The notes beneath the pieces are model-generated. The model was not told the DNA's origin. It saw only the letters and a list, made by a program, of their open reading frames with translations, and did not search any database. A stretch of DNA of 32,000 nucleotides, taken from NCBI RefSeq assembly GCF_000008385.1, contig NC_006833.1, forward strand, positions 660,001-692,000. Reading direction: 5' to 3'. Positions 1,575 through 14,194 of this stretch are shown here, piece by piece (within the stretch, counting starts at the first letter, position 1; each line of letters begins with the position of its first letter). This DNA comes from Wolbachia endosymbiont strain TRS of Brugia malayi (lineage in GTDB: Bacteria > Pseudomonadota > Alphaproteobacteria > Rickettsiales > Anaplasmataceae). A program made the translations under genes and the position numbers.

Positions 1575-1934
1575 TTAATCGTTCCCTTGTTTATCCAGTG
1601 ATATATTTCTTGTACCCTTTGGTATGGTTACACATAAACCATCGATGTCTTTTGTAATTTTTATTTGGCATCCAAGCCTTGACGTCTCTGTTAAGCTAAA
1701 AGCTAGATCTAGCATATCATTTTCTTCATCAGATATAGGATTATGTGTTTCTACAGCATCATAAAAATTTTGATCAATAATTACATGACATGTAGAACAG
1801 GCAAGAGAGCCTTCGCATGCACCTTCAAGCAGATCAGGGTCACTTCTGTGAGCTAAATTAAGTAGAGTTTCCCCCTCTGCAGCTTCATAGCTTTTCTTAC
1901 TTCCATCAGGTAAAATAAAAGTGACAGATGGCAT
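1575..1934 (-). CDS. fdx: Adrenodoxin-type [2Fe-2S] ferredoxin
   Basis: 119 aa. It carries the C-x5-C-x2-C cluster (CEGSLACSTCH) plus a distal Cys (RLGCQI), the classic vertebrate-type 2Fe-2S ferredoxin pattern. Confidence 0.85.
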   Translation of the reverse strand: MPSVTFILPDGSKKSYEAAEGETLLNLAHRSDPDLLEGACEGSLACSTCHVIIDQNFYDAVETHNPISDEENDMLDLAFSLTETSRLGCQIKITKDIDGLCVTIPKGTRNISLDKQGND

Positions 1935-1994
1935 ATTACCTTCCTATTAAGATCCTTACTAATTTTCCTATATCTTACAGGTAATAACTAGTAT

Positions 1995-2023
1995 TTGCAA
2001 ACTCTTTACGTTAAGCCTATTAA
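1995..2023 (+). promoter_or_regulatory. Candidate sigma70-like promoter for murD (TTGCAA-N17-TATTAA)
   Basis: TTGCAA at 1995-2000, a 17-nt spacer, then TATTAA at 2018-2023, about 30 nt upstream of ATG 2055. Such hexamers arise easily in an AT-rich background. Confidence 0.25.
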
Positions 2024-2054
2024 TAATTTATATGACGCCTTCCTAAAACAAGTA

Positions 2055-3551
2055 ATGCAACTGAGCAAATACAAAAATCAAAGTGTTGCTGTTTTTGGCC
2101 TTGGCAAAACTGGTTTGTCTGTCATCAATGTTCTAATAAAGAGTGGTGCAAAAGCGTATGCGTGGGATGATAGTAAAGAACAAATGGCAAATGCAAAAAC
2201 AATGTACAAAGAGTGTAATTTTATCCATCCAAAAAAATACGATTGGCACGAGATAAAAGCATTGATTTTAAGCCCTGGAGTACCAATTTCATATCCGAAG
2301 CCACATTGGATAGTAAAACTTGCAAGAAGTTTTGACTGTAAAATAAAATCGGATATTGAACTATTTCTAGAAGCTAAAGCTAAGAACCAGAAAATTGTAG
2401 GCGTCACAGGAACGAATGGCAAATCAACCACTACGTCATTAATAGGTCACATATTAAAATCTGCGGGGAAAAAAGTAGCTATTGGTGGAAATTTAGGTGT
2501 TCCTATTTTGGATCTAGAAAAAGATGCGGAAATTTATGTAATTGAAATTTCCTCTTTTCAATTAGAACTAATAAACATGCCTGCCGTTATTCCAGTGCAT
2601 GACCATACCTTTTTTTCTGGATCACAGTATCGTGCTGCTTGGATGATAAAAAGGGTATCTGAGATGACAAAAAAGATGACCGAGGTGACGAAAAGGATGG
2701 CTGGAATGATAAAGGTAGATATTTCAGTATTGCTCAACATTACCCTAGATCATATAGATAGACATGGAAGTATGGAAAATTATATAGCAGTTAAATCAAA
2801 GCTAATAGGCGGTAGTAAGGTCGCAGTGATAGGATGTGATAATGAAATTACCGCTGATATATTTAATAAATTTACTGGAAATAAGATTCCAATCTCAGGA
2901 GTACGCTCCTTATTGGATGATAAAAAGGGCGCTGAGATCCAGGAAATTTCGTTAAAACTAGAAAATCATAACTTATCAGCAAGTGACGCGAAAATAAACT
3001 TAACATCCAATGCAGAAAACATAGCAGCTTCATGTGCTGTGTGTAAGTTGCTTAAAGTAGATAGCAGCACTATTATCGACGGGATCAAATCTTTTTCAGG
3101 GTTAAAGCACAGAAATGAACTACTTGGCAAAATAGAAAATGTGCTTTTTGTAAACGATAGCAAAGCAACTAACGCTGAATCGAGCAAAAAGGCGATTTTG
3201 TCTTATAAAAACATATATTGGATCGTTGGTGGAAGAAGTAAAGAAGGTGGTATAGAGTCATTAAGCAAGCATTTTGCAAGAATTAGAAAAGCTCTTCTTA
3301 TTGGAGAATCAACAGAAGTTTTTGCAAGCACTATGGAAAATAAAGTGGATTATGTTAGATGTTGCAATTTAGAAGACGCATTTAGACTGGCTTTTGAAGA
3401 GGCTATAAAGAGCAAAGAAAAAACAACAATACTACTTTCTCCTGCATGTGCTTCTTTTGATCAGTGGAGAAATTTTGAAGAGCGTGGTGAAGCATTTTGC
3501 AGAATGTTTGAAAAACTCAGGGATTCATTTACAATTACACGTGTTGTTTAA
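2055..3551 (+). CDS. murD: UDP-N-acetylmuramoylalanine--D-glutamate ligase (MurD), carrying two in-frame repeat-derived insertions
   Basis: Mur ligase motifs are present: GVTGTNGKSTT P-loop, SSFQLE, NITLDHIDRHG and NDSKATN. The ORF opens at TTG 1995, but ATG 2055 gives the usual N-terminus (MQLSKYKNQSVAVFGLGKTG). Confidence 0.9.
   Translation: MQLSKYKNQSVAVFGLGKTGLSVINVLIKSGAKAYAWDDSKEQMANAKTMYKECNFIHPKKYDWHEIKALILSPGVPISYPKPHWIVKLARSFDCKIKSDIELFLEAKAKNQKIVGVTGTNGKSTTTSLIGHILKSAGKKVAIGGNLGVPILDLEKDAEIYVIEISSFQLELINMPAVIPVHDHTFFSGSQYRAAWMIKRVSEMTKKMTEVTKRMAGMIKVDISVLLNITLDHIDRHGSMENYIAVKSKLIGGSKVAVIGCDNEITADIFNKFTGNKIPISGVRSLLDDKKGAEIQEISLKLENHNLSASDAKINLTSNAENIAASCAVCKLLKVDSSTIIDGIKSFSGLKHRNELLGKIENVLFVNDSKATNAESSKKAILSYKNIYWIVGGRSKEGGIESLSKHFARIRKALLIGESTEVFASTMENKVDYVRCCNLEDAFRLAFEEAIKSKEKTTILLSPACASFDQWRNFEERGEAFCRMFEKLRDSFTITRVV
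2586..2715. repeat. Short palindromic repeat element (RPE/WPE-like) inserted in frame in murD
   Basis: Inverted termini (ttattccag ... ctggaatgataa) and reiterated GATGAYAAAARG units. It is colinear with the intergenic copies at 11438-11497 and 13678-13736 through shared blocks attccagtg, ctggatcNcagt, ggatgataa and ctggaat. It encodes the extra peptide between the SSFQLE and NITLDH motifs. Confidence 0.7.
2890..2943. repeat. Second, shorter copy of the same palindromic repeat family inside murD
   Basis: atctcag (2892-2898) and ctgagat (2932-2938) form inverted arms. The core ttggatgataaaaagggcgctgagat nearly matches 2639-2665 (ttggatgataaaaagggtatctgagat). The reverse complement begins ctggatctcag, identical to 13681-13691. 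Confidence 0.55.
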
Positions 3552-3563
3552 TACAATATTGTT

Positions 3564-4163
3564 GTGGAACAAGATGAAATAAGGTTGATAATAGATGAGC
3601 TAATCAGGATTATTCCATTTGAAGGGATAAGCGATAAGACTCTATTAAAAGTGTGCACAGACCTTAATCTAGCCAATAGCTTTTGCAAATTTCAGAATGG
3701 AATATATAGTGCTTTGGAGTGCATAGTAGAGGACTTGAATAGTTCAATGGAAGCTGAACTTCGGAATTTTAACTTGGAAGATATGAAAGTGCAGGAGCAA
3801 ATAAAGTTAGCTGTTCAAATATGCCTATCAAACTATGCTACGCTACCAAATTACAGAGAGTTTTTAAAAAATATTCTATCCTTTTCTGTATTACCAAAAA
3901 ATATATACTTTTCTAGTAAACTCTTATGCAGAATAGTCGATATGATTTGGTATGGTATTCACGATCAATCAACAGATTTTAATTACTATACAAAACGGGC
4001 AATATTGGCTGGGGTATATTTAAGCATAATACTCTTTTTTATTAATGACTATTCAGAAGGTTTTGCAGATACTCTATCATTTCTTGATAGGTGCATTAAC
4101 AATGTCATGACGTTTCAAAAGTTTAAAATCCATCTAAAAGAAATTGTAGGAAGTTTTCTATAG
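3564..4163 (+). CDS. COQ9 / RpsU-divergently-transcribed family protein (ubiquinone-biosynthesis associated)
   Basis: 199 aa with a GTG start. The N-terminal TetR-like helical segment (LIIDELIRIIPFEGISDKTLLKVCTDLNL) and the overall length resemble the alphaproteobacterial COQ9-like family. The assignment is from memory of that family. Confidence 0.6.
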   Translation: MEQDEIRLIIDELIRIIPFEGISDKTLLKVCTDLNLANSFCKFQNGIYSALECIVEDLNSSMEAELRNFNLEDMKVQEQIKLAVQICLSNYATLPNYREFLKNILSFSVLPKNIYFSSKLLCRIVDMIWYGIHDQSTDFNYYTKRAILAGVYLSIILFFINDYSEGFADTLSFLDRCINNVMTFQKFKIHLKEIVGSFL

Positions 4164-7147: not shown

Positions 7148-10100
7148 CTAAACGTTTTGTATTTGCTGTAATGACTTCACTTCCATCTCACTATTCTTTA
7201 CATATTGAATTGCAAGCACTAATGCTTTACTTCCAGAAGCTGTGGTACTGTAAGCTATATTCTGCAAAATAGCAGTTCTGCGAATATCTCTGCTATCTGA
7301 AACTGATTTCACACCTTTTGAGGTATTAATCACTAGATTTATTTTTCCATCTTTAAGCATGTCAACTATGTGGGGTCTGCCTTCTCTCACTTTATTTACA
7401 GCTTTCGCAGCAATGCCATTATTATTCAGATATGAAGCTGTACCTTTGGTAGCATATATTCCAAAATTCATCTCTTTCAACATTCGTGCAATTGGCAATA
7501 TATACTCTTTATCGTCATCTTTTACTGAAATTAGAGCTGTTCCTTTTGTTGGTAACTTATATCCTGCAGCCATGTGCACTTTTGCAAGTGCTGCTTCAAA
7601 GGACAAGTCAATTCCCATTACTTCCCCTGTTGACTTCATTTCTGGGCCAAGTAGAGTATCAATCCCTGAAAAACGCGTAAACGGAAAAACAGCAGCTTTA
7701 ACTGCGAAGTGATTAAGAGATTTTTTTTCTTGGTCTAATTTTTTGCCCAAAATAACCTGAGTAGCAAGCTTTGCAATAGGAACATTAATTACCTTGGAAA
7801 TAAAAGGAACTGTACGGCTAGCTCTTAGGTTCACTTCAAGTATGTATATATCATTTTCTTGTATGGCAAATTGAATGTTTATCAGACCTCTCACTTTTAA
7901 TTCAAGAGCTACTCTTTCAGTCTGTAGCTCAATCTCTTTTACGACTTCATCATTTAACGTGTTTGTCGGTATTGAGCAGGTTGAATCACCAGAGTGAATT
8001 CCAGCTTCTTCAATATGCTCCATAACTGCCGCAATGAAAACTTTTTCTCCATCACATATAGCGTCAACATCAACCTCAACTGCATTAACTAAGAACTTAT
8101 CAAGCAGCAGTGGTCCATGTTCAAAAATTTTAGTTTGACCCAGGACATATTCCTTAAAGCTCTCAATATCGTGCTTAATTGACATGGATTGACCACCTAA
8201 GACATAGGATGGCCTAACTACTAATGGAAAACCCACTTTTTCTGCGTTAGCCAACGCTTCTTCTACTGAATGACAAATAGAATTTTCAGGTTGTTTTAAA
8301 TTAAGTTGCAAAGCAAGGTTTTTAAACCTCATACGATCTTCAGCAAGATCTATAGAGTCAAAAGACGTGCCCAGGATATTAAAACCCCTTTTATTCAGTA
8401 CCTTTGCTAACCTTAAAGGTGTTTGACCACCTATCTGAACTATGGCACCTACTAGTGTACCATTTTCTTGCTCTTTACTTAGTATCTCAAGTACATCCTC
8501 TATAGTTAACGGAGCAAAATACAAACGATCAGCAGTATCATAATCAGTTGAAACAGTTTCAGGATTACAGTTAATCATTATTGTTTCGTATCCCATCTCT
8601 TTGGCAGCAGAAACTGCATGCACACACGCGTAGTCAAACTCAATACCTTGACCAATACGGTTTGGTCCACTACCCAAAATTACAACCTTTTTTCGATTAG
8701 AAACGTCCGCTTCGCATTCTGTCTTATTTACAACGTCTCCCTCATAACAACCATACATATAAGCAGTGCTCGATTCAAATTCAGCCGCACACGTATCTAC
8801 ACATTTATAAACTGGGCTAACACCAAACTTTTTTCTCATTTTTTCAATCTGTTCTATTTGGTCTACAGTGCATGAAGCTGGAATAGATTTATTGCTTAAC
8901 TTTGCCAACCTTGCATCTGAAAATCCCATCTTTTTTAGTTCTAATATTTCGTACGCGGTTTCAGGTAGGCCAGTTTCTTTAATTTTCTGTTCAGCCAAGA
9001 TGATTTGCTGTATGTTCTGCAAAAACCATAAGTCATACCCTGTAATTGAATTTATCTCTTCTATGCTAATTCCATGACGCATTGCGTCAGCAGCAATTAA
9101 TAATCTATTTGGCAACAATTTCGCTAATTGAGATTTTATGTGATCAACATCCGTATCCTCAGGAAACACCTCATCAAGTCCTGTAAGGCCAGTTTCAAGT
9201 GAGCGGAAAGCTTTCTGTAGTGACTCATTAAAAGTGCGACCTATAGACATTACTTCTCCTACTGATTTCATGGAAGTTGACAGTTCACAGTCCGTTTCTT
9301 TAAATTTTTCGAACTCAAAACGAGGAACCTTAGTGACAACATAATCAACCACTGGTTCAAATGCAGCAGGTATAGTTGGTGCACAATCGTTGCGTATTTC
9401 ATCAAGTGAATAGCCAATAGCAAGCTTAGTTGCAACTTTTGCTATGGGGTAACCTGTTGCCTTTGAGGCAAGCGCAGAAGAGCGGGAAACTCTTGGATTC
9501 ATTTCAATTACAACAAGGCTTCCATCTTCTTTAGGATTAACCGCAAATTGAACATTTGCACCACCTGCACTAACATCAATTTCCCTAAGCACTGCTATAG
9601 ATGCATTTCTCATTTGTTGGTACTCCGCATCACGCAGAGTCAAAGCGGGGGCAACGGTAATGCTATCACCTGTGTGAACTCCCATGGGATCAACATTTTC
9701 TATCGAACAGACTATTATACAGTTATCTTTGCAATCGCGAATAACTTCCATTTCATATTCTTTCCAGCCGATAATCGATTCATCTACCTGAACTTCATTT
9801 ATCGGTGAAACTTTCAAAGCATTCTCCACAATGTTGAAAAACTCCTTCTTATTGTACGCTATGCCGCTACCTGCACCACCAAGAGTAAACGATGAACGGA
9901 TGATCGCAGGTAACCCTACATAATCGAGAGCTTCCTTTATTTGTTCTCGATTTTTTATAATGATACTTCTAGGGTATTTTAATCCTATTTTATCCATAGA
10001 TTGGCGAAATAATTCTCTATCCTCTGCTTTTTTAATTGCTTCTCTATTTACGCCAATTAACTTTACGTTATATTTATCCAATACTCCATCATCTGCAAGT

Positions 10101-10402
10101 TTCATTGCACAGTTCAAAGCAGTTTGCCCGCCCATTGTTGGTAATATTGCATCTGGCTTCTCTTTAATTATGATTTCTTCTATGATTTCAGGCAGTATAG
10201 GTTCAATATACGTTGCATCAGAAAACTCAGGATCCGTCATTATAGTCGCAGGATTAGAATTAACCAAAATAACCTTATAATTCTCGTTCTTTAATACCTT
10301 GCAACTCTGAGTTCCGGAATAATCGAATTCGCATGCCTGACCTATAATTATCGGACCTGCCCCTATTACTAATATAGATTCTATATCTGTACGTTTTGGC
10401 AT
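7148..10402 (-). CDS. carB: Carbamoyl-phosphate synthase large subunit
   Basis: About 1084 aa from ATG 10402 ([32 protein letters not shown]). It has duplicated ATP-grasp halves (a second [21 protein letters not shown]) and a C-terminal MGS-like domain. The ORF track extends 12 codons further upstream. Confidence 0.95.
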
Positions 10403-10439
10403 AATTATAATAATGATCTCTCTAGGTAATGTTACCAAT

Positions 10440-10975
10440 CTTTCCTATATATGTGAATTTTTATTAGACTTATGTGCCAACCACTTCAGGCCCACAACTA
10501 TACAAACATCGTGATTTGATAACAGGATTCAAGTAGCTCATAAAAATGTAAAGCCCATTTTACAGGCCTTAAGAACCCTTATATGGGGATGTTTTAGACC
10601 TAAAATTTATCCTTAATCTTTATTTAAGTGACAAAAGCACATTATTAAACTAGGTGTGTTATGTTTAATTTTTCTTATATAGACACTCCATGTCTTTATA
10701 AATTTTTATCTACGTTAGCTGAATCTCGCTTATTAAGTAATGTAATAAGCGCCAAGTTTTTGAGAGAACAGTAAACAACTCACATTGCATTGTTCTTTTT
10801 GTCTTTATTTAAGAATTAGTTCAAAAATCAACTAATCTTCTTTTTTTATAAAGAAATTATTTGAAAAACTTCTGCATTACCCTTATCGTGACGTTATGGA
10901 TATTTATAATTCCAAGGTTGACTACTTACCAAGCATATAAGACATTAATGTCAAGTTCCTACAAGAGATATCACT
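10440..10975 (-). repeat. R1 dispersed repeat, copy 2 (inverted relative to copy 1), contiguous with the IS110 transposase fragment
   Basis: The reverse complement is colinear with 6698-7055 (for example ttatctacgttagctgaatctcgcttattaag against its counterpart in copy 1). It has extra internal sequence or a partial duplication, and its distal end is poorly alignable. Confidence 0.5.
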
Positions 10976-11000
10976 AGGGTTTCTTTTGCCCTTTTTCTTC

Positions 11001-11255
11001 CTAAGAAACTTCTTCAACCAACTCCTCTTGTTGAACCAACATATAACCAAATTCCTGTGCCCTTTTGATCAAATTTTTCACACTTTCTTTTTATAACGTG
11101 TTTCATAGTAGCTTATACCTCTTTCCACATATCCTTGTCCACATTTCAACATTTGATAGAAGATACGTGCTAACTTTCTTGTAGTAGCAGTAATTGCCTC
11201 TGGGGTTCTTAAAAACTTAAATTAAGGAGCTTCTTCCTGGTTTGACAGATTTCTT
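11001..11255 (-). pseudogene. IS110-family transposase, C-terminal fragment (frameshifted, truncated)
   Basis: The minus-strand translation reads RTPEAITATTRKLARIFYQMLKCGQGYVERGISYYETRYKKK, then after a frameshift VKNLIKRAQEFGYMLVQQEELVEEVS*. This is the characteristic C-terminal ..A.ARKLARI.Y.ML..G..Y.. block of IS110 transposases. No N-terminal catalytic part is present. Confidence 0.7.
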
Positions 11256-11343
11256 CCGTCCGGTGCTACTTGGTAAATTTCTTAATATTTATAGCCACCG
11301 ATAACTGCCGCTTGTCAGCAGCTGAAGGATACCGTGAGTGAAT

Positions 11344-11497
11344 CGCAGTATGACATAGGGGCTGCCGATATCCAGCACGTAAAGCTGGCTTCTCATACTG
11401 GAAAATCATGAGGCAACAGAAATAGTAAATAAATTTACCAGATTCCAGTGTCATACACTGGGACGACAGAGGAAAGAGGCACTGGAGCAATAGAGGG
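11344..11497. repeat. Cluster of nested hairpin repeats (same family as the murD inserts)
   Basis: Hairpins are cgcagtatgaca...tcatactg enclosing tccagcacgtaaagctgg, and the unit at 11438-11497 (ccagattccagtgtcatacactgggacgacagaggaaagaggcactggagcaata). That unit is about 76% identical to 13684-13732 by my manual count. Confidence 0.65.
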
Positions 11498-11989
11498 TAG
11501 CACAAAAAATTTAGTAATTTACATACAAATAATGTTTTCTATTGTAATTTAGAGTATATATTAATTTATTAATAAAATTAACCAATAGACATTATAATAT
11601 TAATAACTGCAAACTTATCGAAAGATTTCCATGAGTGAAAAAAATGTGTTTTTAAGATAGCAAAAGGTAGCCTAATAGAAACTGATGGCAAAAAGTGTTA
11701 CAAGGTAAAATTAGTAGAGAAAAATCTTCTCGGAGAGATAGAGCAAGAAGTCACATTCAATGAACATTTGCAGCACATTATAAAAATATATAATATCTGG
11801 GTGAGCATGATCCTAATGATGACTATAAAAATCAAATTTTCTGCTATTCTCATTGAAAATGAAACTTGATCGGTGTCCAACATGGTACGTAATGTGGCAT
11901 ATAATCCAATCGTAACTGATATAATATTAAGATTAGAATAGTTAAATACCATTTAAAGCTTGTTAACAAGTGAAATATTAATTTTTATA

Positions 11990-13600
11990 GGGAGATATAA
12001 CTCTACCTGACTCGTCGTTAAAATCTCATGTAAATAACCTACAATTAAAAGAATATTATGAAAAGCAGTCTGAGAAGGGAAAAGCTATACTGTATATTGA
12101 CTATGGTAATCCGGTACTGGCCGTTAGAGATTTACAAAAACAGATTGTTTGTGGACTACATGATAAAGCGTTGCCTGTAACAGATAAAATGAAACCCATG
12201 ATTTATAGACAAGGATGCCCTAATCCAGGTAAAAAGTAGGAGATTCTAAGTATGTACTGTGATAAAAAATGAACCGGACTTAATGATTCCCTTATCTATT
12301 TTTCAAGATAGGAAAAGTACGTTACAAAACTCACAAAGCCCACTTGACATTATATTCCAATCTTGCGAATCTGTAATTATTGAAAATCTGACAGATATCC
12401 AAATCCAAAGTTTAGCAGATCAACTAACTAATCATCAATTAAAGATCCTTACAAAAGATCTTAATAGCTACCAACTTCAAGCCCCAGCAGAACACCTAAC
12501 TGATGGTCAACCATATCTAACAAGAGATTTATCTGACCACCATTTAACCATCCTTTCCAAGGAACTGTAGCATGATCAACTTCAATTCCCAGTTCTACTT
12601 TAGAAGAAGATAAATTAAAGAATTTAGTTAACAACTGGATCATGAGAGCTCGCAGCAATAGCTCATGATTTAACCAATCATGTCAGAATCGGAGTTATAA
12701 TCGATTACCTAACCACTAACCAGAAAAACTTCAGACTTTTGCTAACAGTATATCTGATCAACAATTTGCAGAACTTTTAAACAATCTAAATGCAGAAGAT
12801 CTAAAAGATGTTCTTCATAAGCTGCCCTATGAGAAAGTCATATCTGTGGTTGTTCAATCAGGCGATAAAAGTCAACTTGATGCTGTTGCTGAGATGTTGA
12901 TAGAAAAGTTTGAGGAGCAGAACAAAAAAAATAAAAAAGTTATTGAGATACTCAAGCAAATCAAGGAGGATACATCAGGTCTCTTAGAAGCTCAGGATTT
13001 TACAATAGCGGAAGAAATAACGATCCAATGCTACTTCCATAGTAGCAATTTATGAGAATTAATTTCTCATAGGAATAACTTATTATGAGTAAAAATAATG
13101 CAAAATTATATTCTAGTGAAGAAGTTTCACAGTAAAATAAAATTACAACAACTTCAGAAACCTAAGTTTGACAAACCAAATTTCGTAAACTCAGAAGTAG
13201 GGAAAACAATTGATACAAAGACCAGTAAGATATTTGACATAACTCAGGAAATGAAGCAAAAAGATATGGATGATATACCGTGAATGCAAGTGTAAGTGCA
13301 AAATACCTAAAAAAGCTTTACGATGGCTTGATGGGAAGTATTCATAAGTATAACGAAGATGCAAGAGCTGAGACTATAAATAAAATAATAAAACACTGTC
13401 ATCAGCTATAGATAATATAGGGCAAAATACAAGCAAAATAGACAGTGAACTTAGAATATTCAAAATGAAGTTTAAGCAAGCTTCGTGATAAGATGCCAGG
13501 TCTTTTAGAAGCTCCCCAATTACCTTATACTATCGGAGAAGAGAATGGATTGTTTCAACAAAAAGTAATAGTCCTCTCTTCCCTTTTATTCTGGCATTGA
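11990..13600 (+). pseudogene. Remnant of a large repeat-containing protein (12-residue periodic L-[TS]-x-x-Q-L-x-x-L motif), fragmented by stops and frameshifts
   Basis: ORF pieces lie in all three + frames (12259-12570, 12846-13055, 13098-13283 and others). 36-bp tandem periodicity starts at 12388 (NLTDIQIQSLADQ / LTNHQLKILTKD / LNSYQLQAPAEH / LTDGQPYLTRD / LSDHHLTILSKE) and continues after a frame change (ISDQQFAELLNN / LNAEDLKDVLHK). A larger internal duplication pairs caggtctcttagaagctc near 12976 with caggtcttttagaagctc near 13498. Confidence 0.5.
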
Positions 13601-13677
13601 CGCTGAGTTACTTTGATAATAGTGTCATGAAAGTAACTGTTTTTTAATAGAGTATAACGTTTTTAATGATTATGAAA

Positions 13678-13736
13678 AACTGGATCTCAGTGTCAAGGCA
13701 CTGGGATGATAAGAGAAGGAGGCACTGGAATAATAC
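13678..13736. repeat. Palindromic hairpin repeat unit (same family as 11438-11497 and the murD inserts)
   Basis: ctggatctcagtgtcaaggcactgggatgataagagaaggaggcactggaataata. It contains the hairpin cagtgtcaaggcactg. Confidence 0.65.
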
Positions 13737-13793
13737 CCTTTCTAGCAAATCTAGGTGATAAACCCTTCCTGATTATTTTTCTATACATCTTTA

Positions 13794-14194
13794 TCAACAC
13801 ATTATGTGGAAGTTAAAGGGCGCTTTTGTATATTCAATTGGCTTCCAGTTGCATCCCTCACATGTGTAGTCAAATTTCTCTAAAGACGTTTTTTCCCTGA
13901 TTCTTTTTACTGCTTCACTCCAAGTCAAAGTTTCTCTAATTTTTATTCTTAAAACCTCATATACCTTCTGTCCAGTTCTAAAACTTTAGCTTGTGTAGTG
14001 CATTTATCTTGCTGAGTCTTGGTTTAGACAAGCACTACAGATACTATCAAGATTACCAGTTACTTTAATTTGAGTATTGGGATCAGTGATTACTTTACTG
14101 CTATCTTTCTGTAACTTTCTATAAAATCTTGAAGATATCCATATCCTTGCAACGCAAGAGCTTATATGAAATAGTGAGGACTAAATCTTATCAT
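13794..14194 (-). pseudogene. DUF1284-family (Cys-rich, putative Fe-S binding) protein pseudogene
   Basis: The minus-strand conceptual translation is MIRFSPHYFI*ALALQGYGYLQDFIESYRKIAVK, then after a frameshift VITDPNTQIKVTGNLDSICSACLNQ..., ending in LTWSEAVKRIREKTSLEKFDYTCEGCNWKPIEY...C*. This matches the DUF1284 pattern as I remember it (R.HH..C....GyGYs..F, D.iC..C, C..C.W). It has one in-frame stop and at least two frameshifts. Its ATG lies inside the last codons of bioY. Confidence 0.5.

Follow-up and report, generated by a model that had tools for sequence, protein, structure and literature searches.

We analyzed a 32,000-nt stretch of the genome of the Wolbachia strain wBm, which inhabits the filarial worm Brugia malayi (NC_006833.1, 660,001-692,000), hereafter the window; all wBm coordinates given below are window positions. 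In this window, the murD gene, which encodes UDP-N-acetylmuramoyl-L-alanine--D-glutamate ligase, carries two repeat-derived segments, designated site 1 and site 2. Both segments are very probably ancient in-frame relics of a Wolbachia palindromic repeat family, which corresponds to the protein model TIGR02697 and whose units have the CGTC-4 format. The homology to the family, the phylogenetic distribution, the relaxed constraint and the restriction of low model confidence to the inserts were observed directly, as described below.

The murD open reading frame (ORF) is open across 1995-3551 (+), and the start that is backed by homologues is the ATG at 2055. The product was 100% identical to wBm MurD over 100% of its length, and the identical protein is present on five contigs. 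It scored 350.6 bits against NCBIfam TIGR01087 (the murD equivalog; cut-off, 211.95). The AlphaFold model of wBm MurD has a mean predicted local distance difference test score (pLDDT) of 88, with a template modeling (TM) score of 0.76-0.86 to E. coli MurD. All of the residues that are invariant over 103 MurD sequences are kept in wBm, including the P-loop G119-T126, E164, D232/H233 and K247. Glu164 is presumably the counterpart of Glu157 of E. coli MurD, which binds Mg. The wBm MurD enzyme looks functional.

The opposite possibility is that murD is decaying or wrongly assembled and that the extra segments are junk. The loss or disruption of several cell-wall genes in wBm, including ftsW and ftsI (PMC1069646), would be in line with such decay. 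In contrast, five supergroup D strains have an unbroken murD ORF, the ratio of nonsynonymous to synonymous substitution rates (dN/dS) is 0.14, the invariant residues are kept and the five contigs agree. Furthermore, two reports describe the lipid II pathway of wBm as complete and muraymycin D2, an MraY inhibitor, as enlarging Wolbachia cells (PMC4062475, PMC11117252). We therefore rejected the pseudogene or artefact explanation on the basis of the intact ORFs, the dN/dS and the invariant residues, and regard it as very improbable.

A preliminary description of this DNA had reported an open murD frame with about 42 extra residues. The number at site 1 is 43, and the ORF is intact. The spacing from the SSFQLE motif to the LLNITxDH motif is 68 residues in wBm, versus 25 in nearly all of the 102 other MurD sequences that were aligned (Wolbachia, Neoehrlichia and Anaplasma, together with bacteria that are less closely related). 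A longer spacing was seen only in supergroup D and in seven further sequences of Wolbachia type, of which one, P0059, has an unrelated insert. A phmmer comparison with solved MurD structures also breaks at site 1 (query 12-173 on chain 11-171, and query 219-488 on chain 174-447), which falls between the strand with the invariant Glu164 and the strand with Asp232/His233. Pfam gave no family for the insert peptide.

The inverted termini that had been described at site 1 are present, though short: ATTCCAG at 2589-2595 is answered by CTGGAAT at 2701-2707, so that the perfect inverted termini are only 7 nt long, and CCTTTTTTTC is answered by GATAAAAAGG. The reiterated GATGAYAAAARG units, another claim of the preliminary description, were borne out. 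The stretch 2634-2715 has a self-identity of 62% at lag 21, which was matched in none of 5000 shuffles (lags 6-44). Tandem Repeats Finder reported no array over 2400-3100, because the 21-nt array is too diverged. The insert has the layout of two hairpin units (Table 1). The right unit retains 6 of 9 stem pairs, the left unit has lost its 3′ arm, and the tags CGTT and GATA differ from the canonical tag by one mismatch each. A target-site duplication was sought at site 1, and none was defensible.

The nature of this insert became clear from the murD loci of 11 other Wolbachia-type genomes, which were compared by codon alignment. In wFol (supergroup E), the codon of wBm site 1 is occupied by a near-perfect palindrome of 71 nt, GTCATCCCAGTGCTTCGACACTGGGATCCAGAAAAAAAGGTATGGATTCCAGTGTCACGCACTGGAATGAC, which folds at -21.6 kcal/mol. 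It is a head-to-head dimer of hairpins of about 30 nt, each with the tag TGTC, the 9-bp stem ATCCCAGTG, a loop of 5-6 nt and the tail CCA. The basic unit, (C/T)GTC-ATCCCAGTG-loop-CACTGGGAT-CCA, was found in the relatives, and the window's non-coding copies show it as well. The wFol peptide, VIPVLRHWDPEKKVWIPVSRTGMT, matched all 36 positions of TIGR02697 (WPE_wolbac, 'WPE palindromic element domain'; cut-off, 27.55 bits) with 38 bits (E = 1.2e-9).

In two metagenome-assembled Wolbachia, L027 and L002, this position is occupied by the wFol element in reverse-complemented form, and their reverse-strand translations scored 27.6 and 22.3 bits, respectively, against TIGR02697. The first ~80 nt of wBm site 1 align column by column with L027, L002 and the reverse-complemented wFol element, and 46 columns are invariant. 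The tags of the site-1 dimer face outward around a spacer of 14-18 nt; the tag is TGTC in wFol, L027, L002 and wCfeT, whereas the non-coding copy at 11437 has GACA. The deletion of 9 nt that deprived the left hairpin of its 3′ arm is common to L002, wBm and the Wolbachia of Litomosoides sigmodontis (wLsig) and L. brasiliensis (wLbra). The 21-nt units that follow the right hairpin number two in L027 and four in supergroup D. The folding z-score of site 1 follows a series of increasing decay, wFol (-6.5), L027 (-3.4), L002 (-2.3) and wBm (-1.3), and 15 of 200 shuffles were as stable as the wBm sequence.

The consensus unit is open in four of its six frames (WIPVSRTGMTK, LDPSVTHWDDK, LSSQCVTLGS and VIPVRDTGIQ), and these peptides recur in the MurD alignments. 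Since four of the six frames are open, in-frame copies in tolerant loops of an indispensable gene can persist. From these sequence comparisons, we conclude that the wBm segments belong to the WPE / CGTC-4-type family, which is named here through TIGR02697. Thus, one palindromic repeat family, with non-coding copies, lies behind both in-frame segments, as the preliminary description had proposed.

The two sites of wBm are linked by the 17-mer TTGGATGATAAAAAGGG, which occurs exactly at 2639 (site 1) and at 2913 (site 2); the earlier observation that the second piece repeats the core of the first is therefore correct. In blastn, the two inserts were 77.5% identical over 40 nt (E = 1e-3). The 17-mer is translated as AAWMIKRV at site 1 and as SLLDDKKG at site 2. 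Since it is read in two different frames, the inserts resemble each other as DNA rather than as protein.

The second piece had been placed at 2890-2943 (about 54 bp) and taken for an insertion. The piece is repeat-derived, but its left end (2890-2898) is host sequence. A stem, ATCTCAG/CTGAGAT, is formed by 2892-2898 and 2932-2938, and its left arm encodes the conserved P-I-S. The repeat-derived stretch lies after NKIPIS. Repeat-free orthologues carry a G-x-S...LFDxGK hairpin at this place. The segment is 44 residues long in wBm, versus 40-41 in the repeat-free wChironomus, wTyrophagus, Anaplasma and Neoehrlichia. Because the ancestral hairpin was replaced, the net gain is 3-5 residues and not a fresh insertion of 16. 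The 3′ 36 nt of the wBm sequence ...TTGGATGATAAAAAGGGCGCTGAGATCCAGGAAATT are 86% identical, by manual count, to the tail of the 190-nt insert at site 2 of L002. Most other Wolbachia are also repeat-derived at site 2, for example with LSSQCSDTGIQ from GTCATCCCAGTGCTCAGACACTGGGATCCAG. Site 2 of L002 and of L006, another of the Wolbachia compared, is a cluster; in L002, L006, L009 and wStri this cluster exceeds the segment of wBm by about 56 residues.

It could be argued that AT-rich and purine-rich coding sequence merely seems repetitive and that the two loops are of ordinary origin. The direct similarities within the window are modest (E = 1e-3 and 0.026), and the folding is not significant. 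However, chance would have to account for an exact 17-mer in two frames, for the lag-21 periodicity and for nucleotide-level homology to the canonical palindromes that relatives carry at this codon, including one that scores above the cut-off of the WPE model. The homologous palindromes, the periodicity and the TIGR02697 score of wFol led us to reject this explanation, which is hardly credible.

Several results weigh against the assignment of the wBm segments to the repeat family. Folding had been proposed as a check on the segments; as they stand in wBm, they are no longer significantly more stable than shuffles (z = -0.9 to -1.6). TIGR02697 did not match insert 1, insert 2 or the reverse strand of insert 1 in the frames tried; the model misses the wBm copy because the copy is reversed, truncated, decayed and extended in tandem. 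An nhmmer profile of the unit, built from 10 non-murD copies of other Wolbachia, gave four weak matches on insert 1 (E = 0.09-7, within 130 nt) and no match on insert 2. Because the direct profile matches are weak, the WPE membership of the wBm inserts is derived through a chain of homology across orthologous sites. In addition, the copy evidence for wBm comes from this window. A scan of a genome collection with the pattern TTGGATGAYAAAARN{4,7}CTGNGAT returned no wBm sequence, wBm being apparently absent from the collection; it gave about 20 chance matches in unrelated phyla, and the only relevant matches were four murD sites of other Wolbachia, including the informative intermediate L027. The hydrophobic a/d positions of a heptad pattern in the 21-nt array are kept across the three supergroup D species compared, which may signal constraint. 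Finally, Wolbachia CGTC-4 repeats were stated to be unrelated to WPE (Di Nocera 2013, PMC3733652). This statement conflicts with our observation that a dimer in the CGTC-4 format matches TIGR02697 over its full length; the names CGTC-4 and WPE may denote a single family, in its monomeric and dimeric form.

Selection differs between the inserts and the rest of the protein. In comparisons among wBm, wLsig and wLbra, dN/dS outside the inserts was 0.13-0.14. For insert 1 it was 0.6-1.1, with 0.7-2.4 in the tandem (helical) part and 0-0.58 in the left 17 codons, and dN in insert 2 was 4-5 times higher. Between wBm and a W. bancrofti strain, 5 of 46 residues differ in insert 1 and 8 of 436 elsewhere, without a change in length. 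By these values, the inserts evolve almost neutrally, while the rest of MurD stays under purifying selection. In the AlphaFold model, low pLDDT was confined to residues ~172-220 and 281-305; mapping onto a model, as had been suggested, thus showed the inserts to be its only low-confidence parts. The inserts are presumably translated and exposed on the surface.

Residues 193-215 form a predicted helix (pLDDT ~63). It is conceivable, but improbable in our estimation, that the expansion of site 1 in supergroup D (3.5 heptads, helix 193-215) is a selected functional module, such as an amphipathic or coiled-coil contact surface for partners in lipid II synthesis. Such exaptation would be consistent with the helix in the model and with the low dN/dS of the left 17 codons. 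It would also fit the length and register, which are the same in wBm, the strains of B. pahangi and W. bancrofti, wLsig and wLbra save for one codon, and the a/d heptad positions, which are M/V/I/T in all supergroup D strains compared. On the other hand, the dN/dS of the helical part reaches the values given above, the confidence of the helix is low, and near relatives manage with 0, 1 or 2 units. Furthermore, exchanges among M, V and I are expected under neutrality, because they are single transitions in an ATGA motif.

The distribution of the segments agrees with old relics of the repeat family. The site-1 insert is orthologous in the Wolbachia of B. pahangi, W. bancrofti, L. sigmodontis and L. 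brasiliensis, and several other lineages have homologous elements at this codon. Site 1 is filled in all supergroup D strains examined and also in L002, L027, wFol, wCfeT, P0045, P0046 and P0054. Both inserts are absent from Anaplasma, Neoehrlichia and basal Wolbachia. The orthologue alignment that had been proposed as a test therefore gave a divided answer: the segments are absent from distant relatives, but they are not strain-specific. The statement that the process had hit murD twice in this genome was not upheld, since site 1 is orthologous across supergroup D and most Wolbachia supergroups have repeat-derived sequence at site 2. As judged from the alignments, neither site is a wBm-specific or recent event, and both are old and shared with relatives.

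Nor did we find any sign in wBm that the element is still mobile, a question raised by the preliminary description; the wBm copies are decayed and sparse. The density of units in the DNA of the murD locus was 0.6 per 10 kb in wBm and wLsig, and 2.6-8.8 in wFol, wStri and four metagenome-assembled genomes (L002, L006, L009 and L027). The 21-kb locus of wChironomus, whose murD is without either insert, gave zero unit matches.

All filled alleles of site 1 are without the host codons for EIN, and they share a non-palindromic left flank of 9 nt, ATGCCTGCT or ATGCATACT (ATGCMTRCT), whichever way the palindrome is oriented. The common flank and the EIN loss point to one complex insertion that was followed by inversion in situ. 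In a crude neighbor-joining (NJ) tree of MurD, filled and empty alleles are interleaved (wFol vs P0051; Zx50 vs wCantharis), which requires either recombination between strains or an insertion hotspot. Wolbachia strains recombine with one another.

If site 1 were a hotspot, the codon after ...FQLELxN would have been hit independently, in both orientations and in several lineages, which implies site-specific and perhaps active mobilization. The interleaved alleles, the reverse-complement relation of the wFol element to that of L027, L002 and wBm, and the near-identical units that arthropod strains carry at non-orthologous loci would all agree with this. We nevertheless consider it unlikely, because the 9-nt flank and the EIN loss are common to all filled alleles, the NJ tree is crude and recombination can explain the patchiness.

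Other insertions and fusions were observed in the MurD alignment. The MurD of P0059, a Wolbachia metagenome-assembled genome (MAG), contains an unrelated insert of 41 residues, rich in Ser, Arg and Glu, at site 1, and that of P0055 (wNeria, supergroup E) contains a different in-frame insert, EEHLSVSSQRVTLESRKKEEW, upstream of site 2. Thus, both MurD loops accept varied foreign sequence. P0005 (716 aa), from a MAG, is a fusion of MurD with the COQ9-family gene that lies downstream. Several matches (P0037, P0058 and P0070) bear the annotation of insect proteins, from ant and mealybug, and are likely Wolbachia contamination of the host assemblies or lateral transfers.

Based on old relics of the WPE / CGTC-4-type family as the most probable origin, we infer the following mechanism of insertion, for which no mobilizing enzyme was identified. 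A head-to-head dimer would have been inserted at site 1, between the strand of Glu164 and the strand of Asp232/His233. In the supergroup D lineage, this element would then have lost 9 nt of the left hairpin, and its right end would have grown from two to four 21-nt units, most likely by replication slippage, to give a helix with a heptad pattern. The palindromic pairing would have been eroded by point mutation in the same lineage. At site 2, a repeat cluster would have displaced the ancestral surface hairpin early in Wolbachia, and supergroup D would have retained only the right-hand module.

The features of the window are listed in Table 1. The two non-coding copies had been said to share ordered blocks with the insert of murD. 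They do share its architecture and are strong members of the family, but the direct similarity is marginal. Both copies lie in a stretch of ~3.7 kb from carB to the next solid ORF (10439-14180), which contains only short ORFs and looks like eroded or pseudogenized DNA. The single unit in carB (carB, 7148-10438, -) is probably a third in-frame relic of the family, as far as the sequence indicates.

Table 1. Positions of murD and of the repeat-derived features in the window
Feature	Position	Strand	Evidence
murD (UDP-N-acetylmuramoyl-L-alanine--D-glutamate ligase), intact, 498 aa	2055..3551	+	identity/coverage, TIGR01087, AlphaFold, dN/dS
Site-1 insert, codons M175-K220, net +43 aa; probable decayed head-to-head hairpin dimer of WPE type in reverse orientation, with tandem tail	2577..2714	+	codon and DNA alignments, pLDDT 45-66
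Remnant of the left hairpin unit, with tag CGTT, 5′ arm ATTCCAGTG and loop; 3′ arm removed by the 9-nt deletion, which the MAG Zx50 shares	2585..2603	+	DNA alignment
Dimer spacer CATACCTTTTTTTCTGG, reverse complement of wFol CCAGAAAAAAAGGTATG	2604..2620	+	codon and DNA alignments
Right hairpin unit, decayed: ATCACAGTA..TGCTTGGAT, tag GATA	2621..2648	+	DNA alignments
Four 21-nt reiterations of the 3′ half of the right unit (AAWMIKR / VSEMTKK / MTEVTKR / MAGMIK)	2634..2714	+	lag analysis; helix predicted, residues 193-215
Site-2 repeat-derived segment, about V283-Q296, ...RSLLDDKKGAEIQ; probable remnant right-hand module of a cluster that is larger in other Wolbachia	2899..2943	+	likeness to L002, 7-nt stem, pLDDT 40-57
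Possible third in-frame remnant, single unit in carB, ~KSIPASCTV	8866..8892	-	nhmmer E = 0.057; 9-residue insertion vs E. coli CarB
Non-coding copy: hairpin ATTCCAGTG-TCATA-CACTGGGAC, tag GACA, tail with second half-site	11437..11497	+	nhmmer E = 1.1e-7 (11437-11470); no ORF of note
Non-coding copy: CTGG-ATCTCAGTG-TCAAGG-CACTGGGAT-GATA and tail	13676..13738	+	nhmmer E = 7.1e-8 (13676-13712); blastn to insert 1, E = 0.026

At other loci of the compared genomes, copies were found between genes and within rsmH, a Mur ligase gene and an integrase-like gene. In rsmH (Methyltransf_5), a canonical hairpin unit is present in wLsig (L001 11403-11432) and in wLbra (L008 13569-13599), an orthologous in-frame copy within supergroup D. 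In wFol, seven unit matches (L003 2438-3205) fall inside a Mur-ligase gene of 604 aa (1838-3652, -; Pfam Mur_ligase, _M and _C). By these sequence matches, large repeat clusters also lie in frame within another peptidoglycan ligase, in wFol.

Protein-coding palindromic repeats of Wolbachia were reportedly described as WPE by Ogata, Suhre and Claverie in 2005 (Trends Microbiol 13:253). A later paper credits the identification of WPE to wBm, and WPE-like in-frame regions were described in addA, addB and priA (PMC4224334). No link between WPE and murD was found in the literature searched, which did not include the 2005 report. Like WPE, the murD inserts are a Wolbachia palindrome that occurs in coding and non-coding DNA, in frame and with the ORF unbroken. 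In contrast, the wBm copy runs opposite to the frame of TIGR02697 and is truncated, decayed and extended by the 21-nt array.

The CGTC-4 REPs of Wolbachia wRi and wMel possess a CGTC, TGTC or CCTC tag, a 9-bp stem starting with AT, a 5-nt loop and a CCA tail (Di Nocera 2013, PMC3733652). They are mostly head-to-head dimers and are clustered in Wolbachia, and the CGTC-4 of R. conorii is RPE-4 (PMC3733652). The sole intragenic case listed there for Wolbachia is ComEC of wRi, with the peptide VIPVLDTGI (PMC3733652 supplement). This unit format is identical to ours, and the MurD inserts show the same translation as VIPVLDTGI; the units of wBm murD differ in their one-base tag changes (CGTT and GATA) and broken stems.

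The preliminary description had named the palindromic elements of Rickettsia as the precedent. The phenomenon is the same, but the closest precedent is the WPE of Wolbachia itself. RPE-1 to RPE-7 belong to the sister family of bacteria; they are selfish palindromes that housekeeping genes tolerate in frame, typically at surface loops, and RPE-4/6/7 and WPE have the ATGAC motif in common (PMC3767692). Compared here by literature description, they differ in genus and in consensus sequences, and RPE-1 is 100-150 bp long. REP/BIME elements and bacterial MITEs are also short hairpin repeats, often dimers, for which non-autonomous mobility was proposed. Classical REPs, however, are extragenic and RAYT-mobilized, whereas no RAYT or other mobilizing gene was seen beside the copies analyzed here.

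In-frame WPE / CGTC-4-type repeats in Wolbachia are already known, from 2005. What is new here is the murD instance, its reverse orientation relative to the curated model, the growth of 21-nt units into a heptad helix, and the reading of one module in two frames within one protein. The inserts open no new mechanism and do not indicate ongoing mobility. The chances are small that site 1 is a true orientation-independent hotspot of an element that some Wolbachia still mobilize, that the 21-nt array was co-opted as a heptad helix forming a new interaction surface of MurD, or both; if so, a selfish palindrome would be documented to have given a core enzyme a structural element that it lacked before. 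The relatives provide a graded series from the intact palindrome to the wBm relic, in which the inserts age as stems decay, short deletions arise, units multiply by presumed slippage and the sequence drifts almost neutrally. Copies of this kind that are old or in reverse orientation escape curated protein models such as TIGR02697. For work on filariasis, MurD of wBm contains two Wolbachia-specific and probably surface-exposed segments, which should be left out or handled with care when sequences are aligned, homology models built and inhibitors designed.

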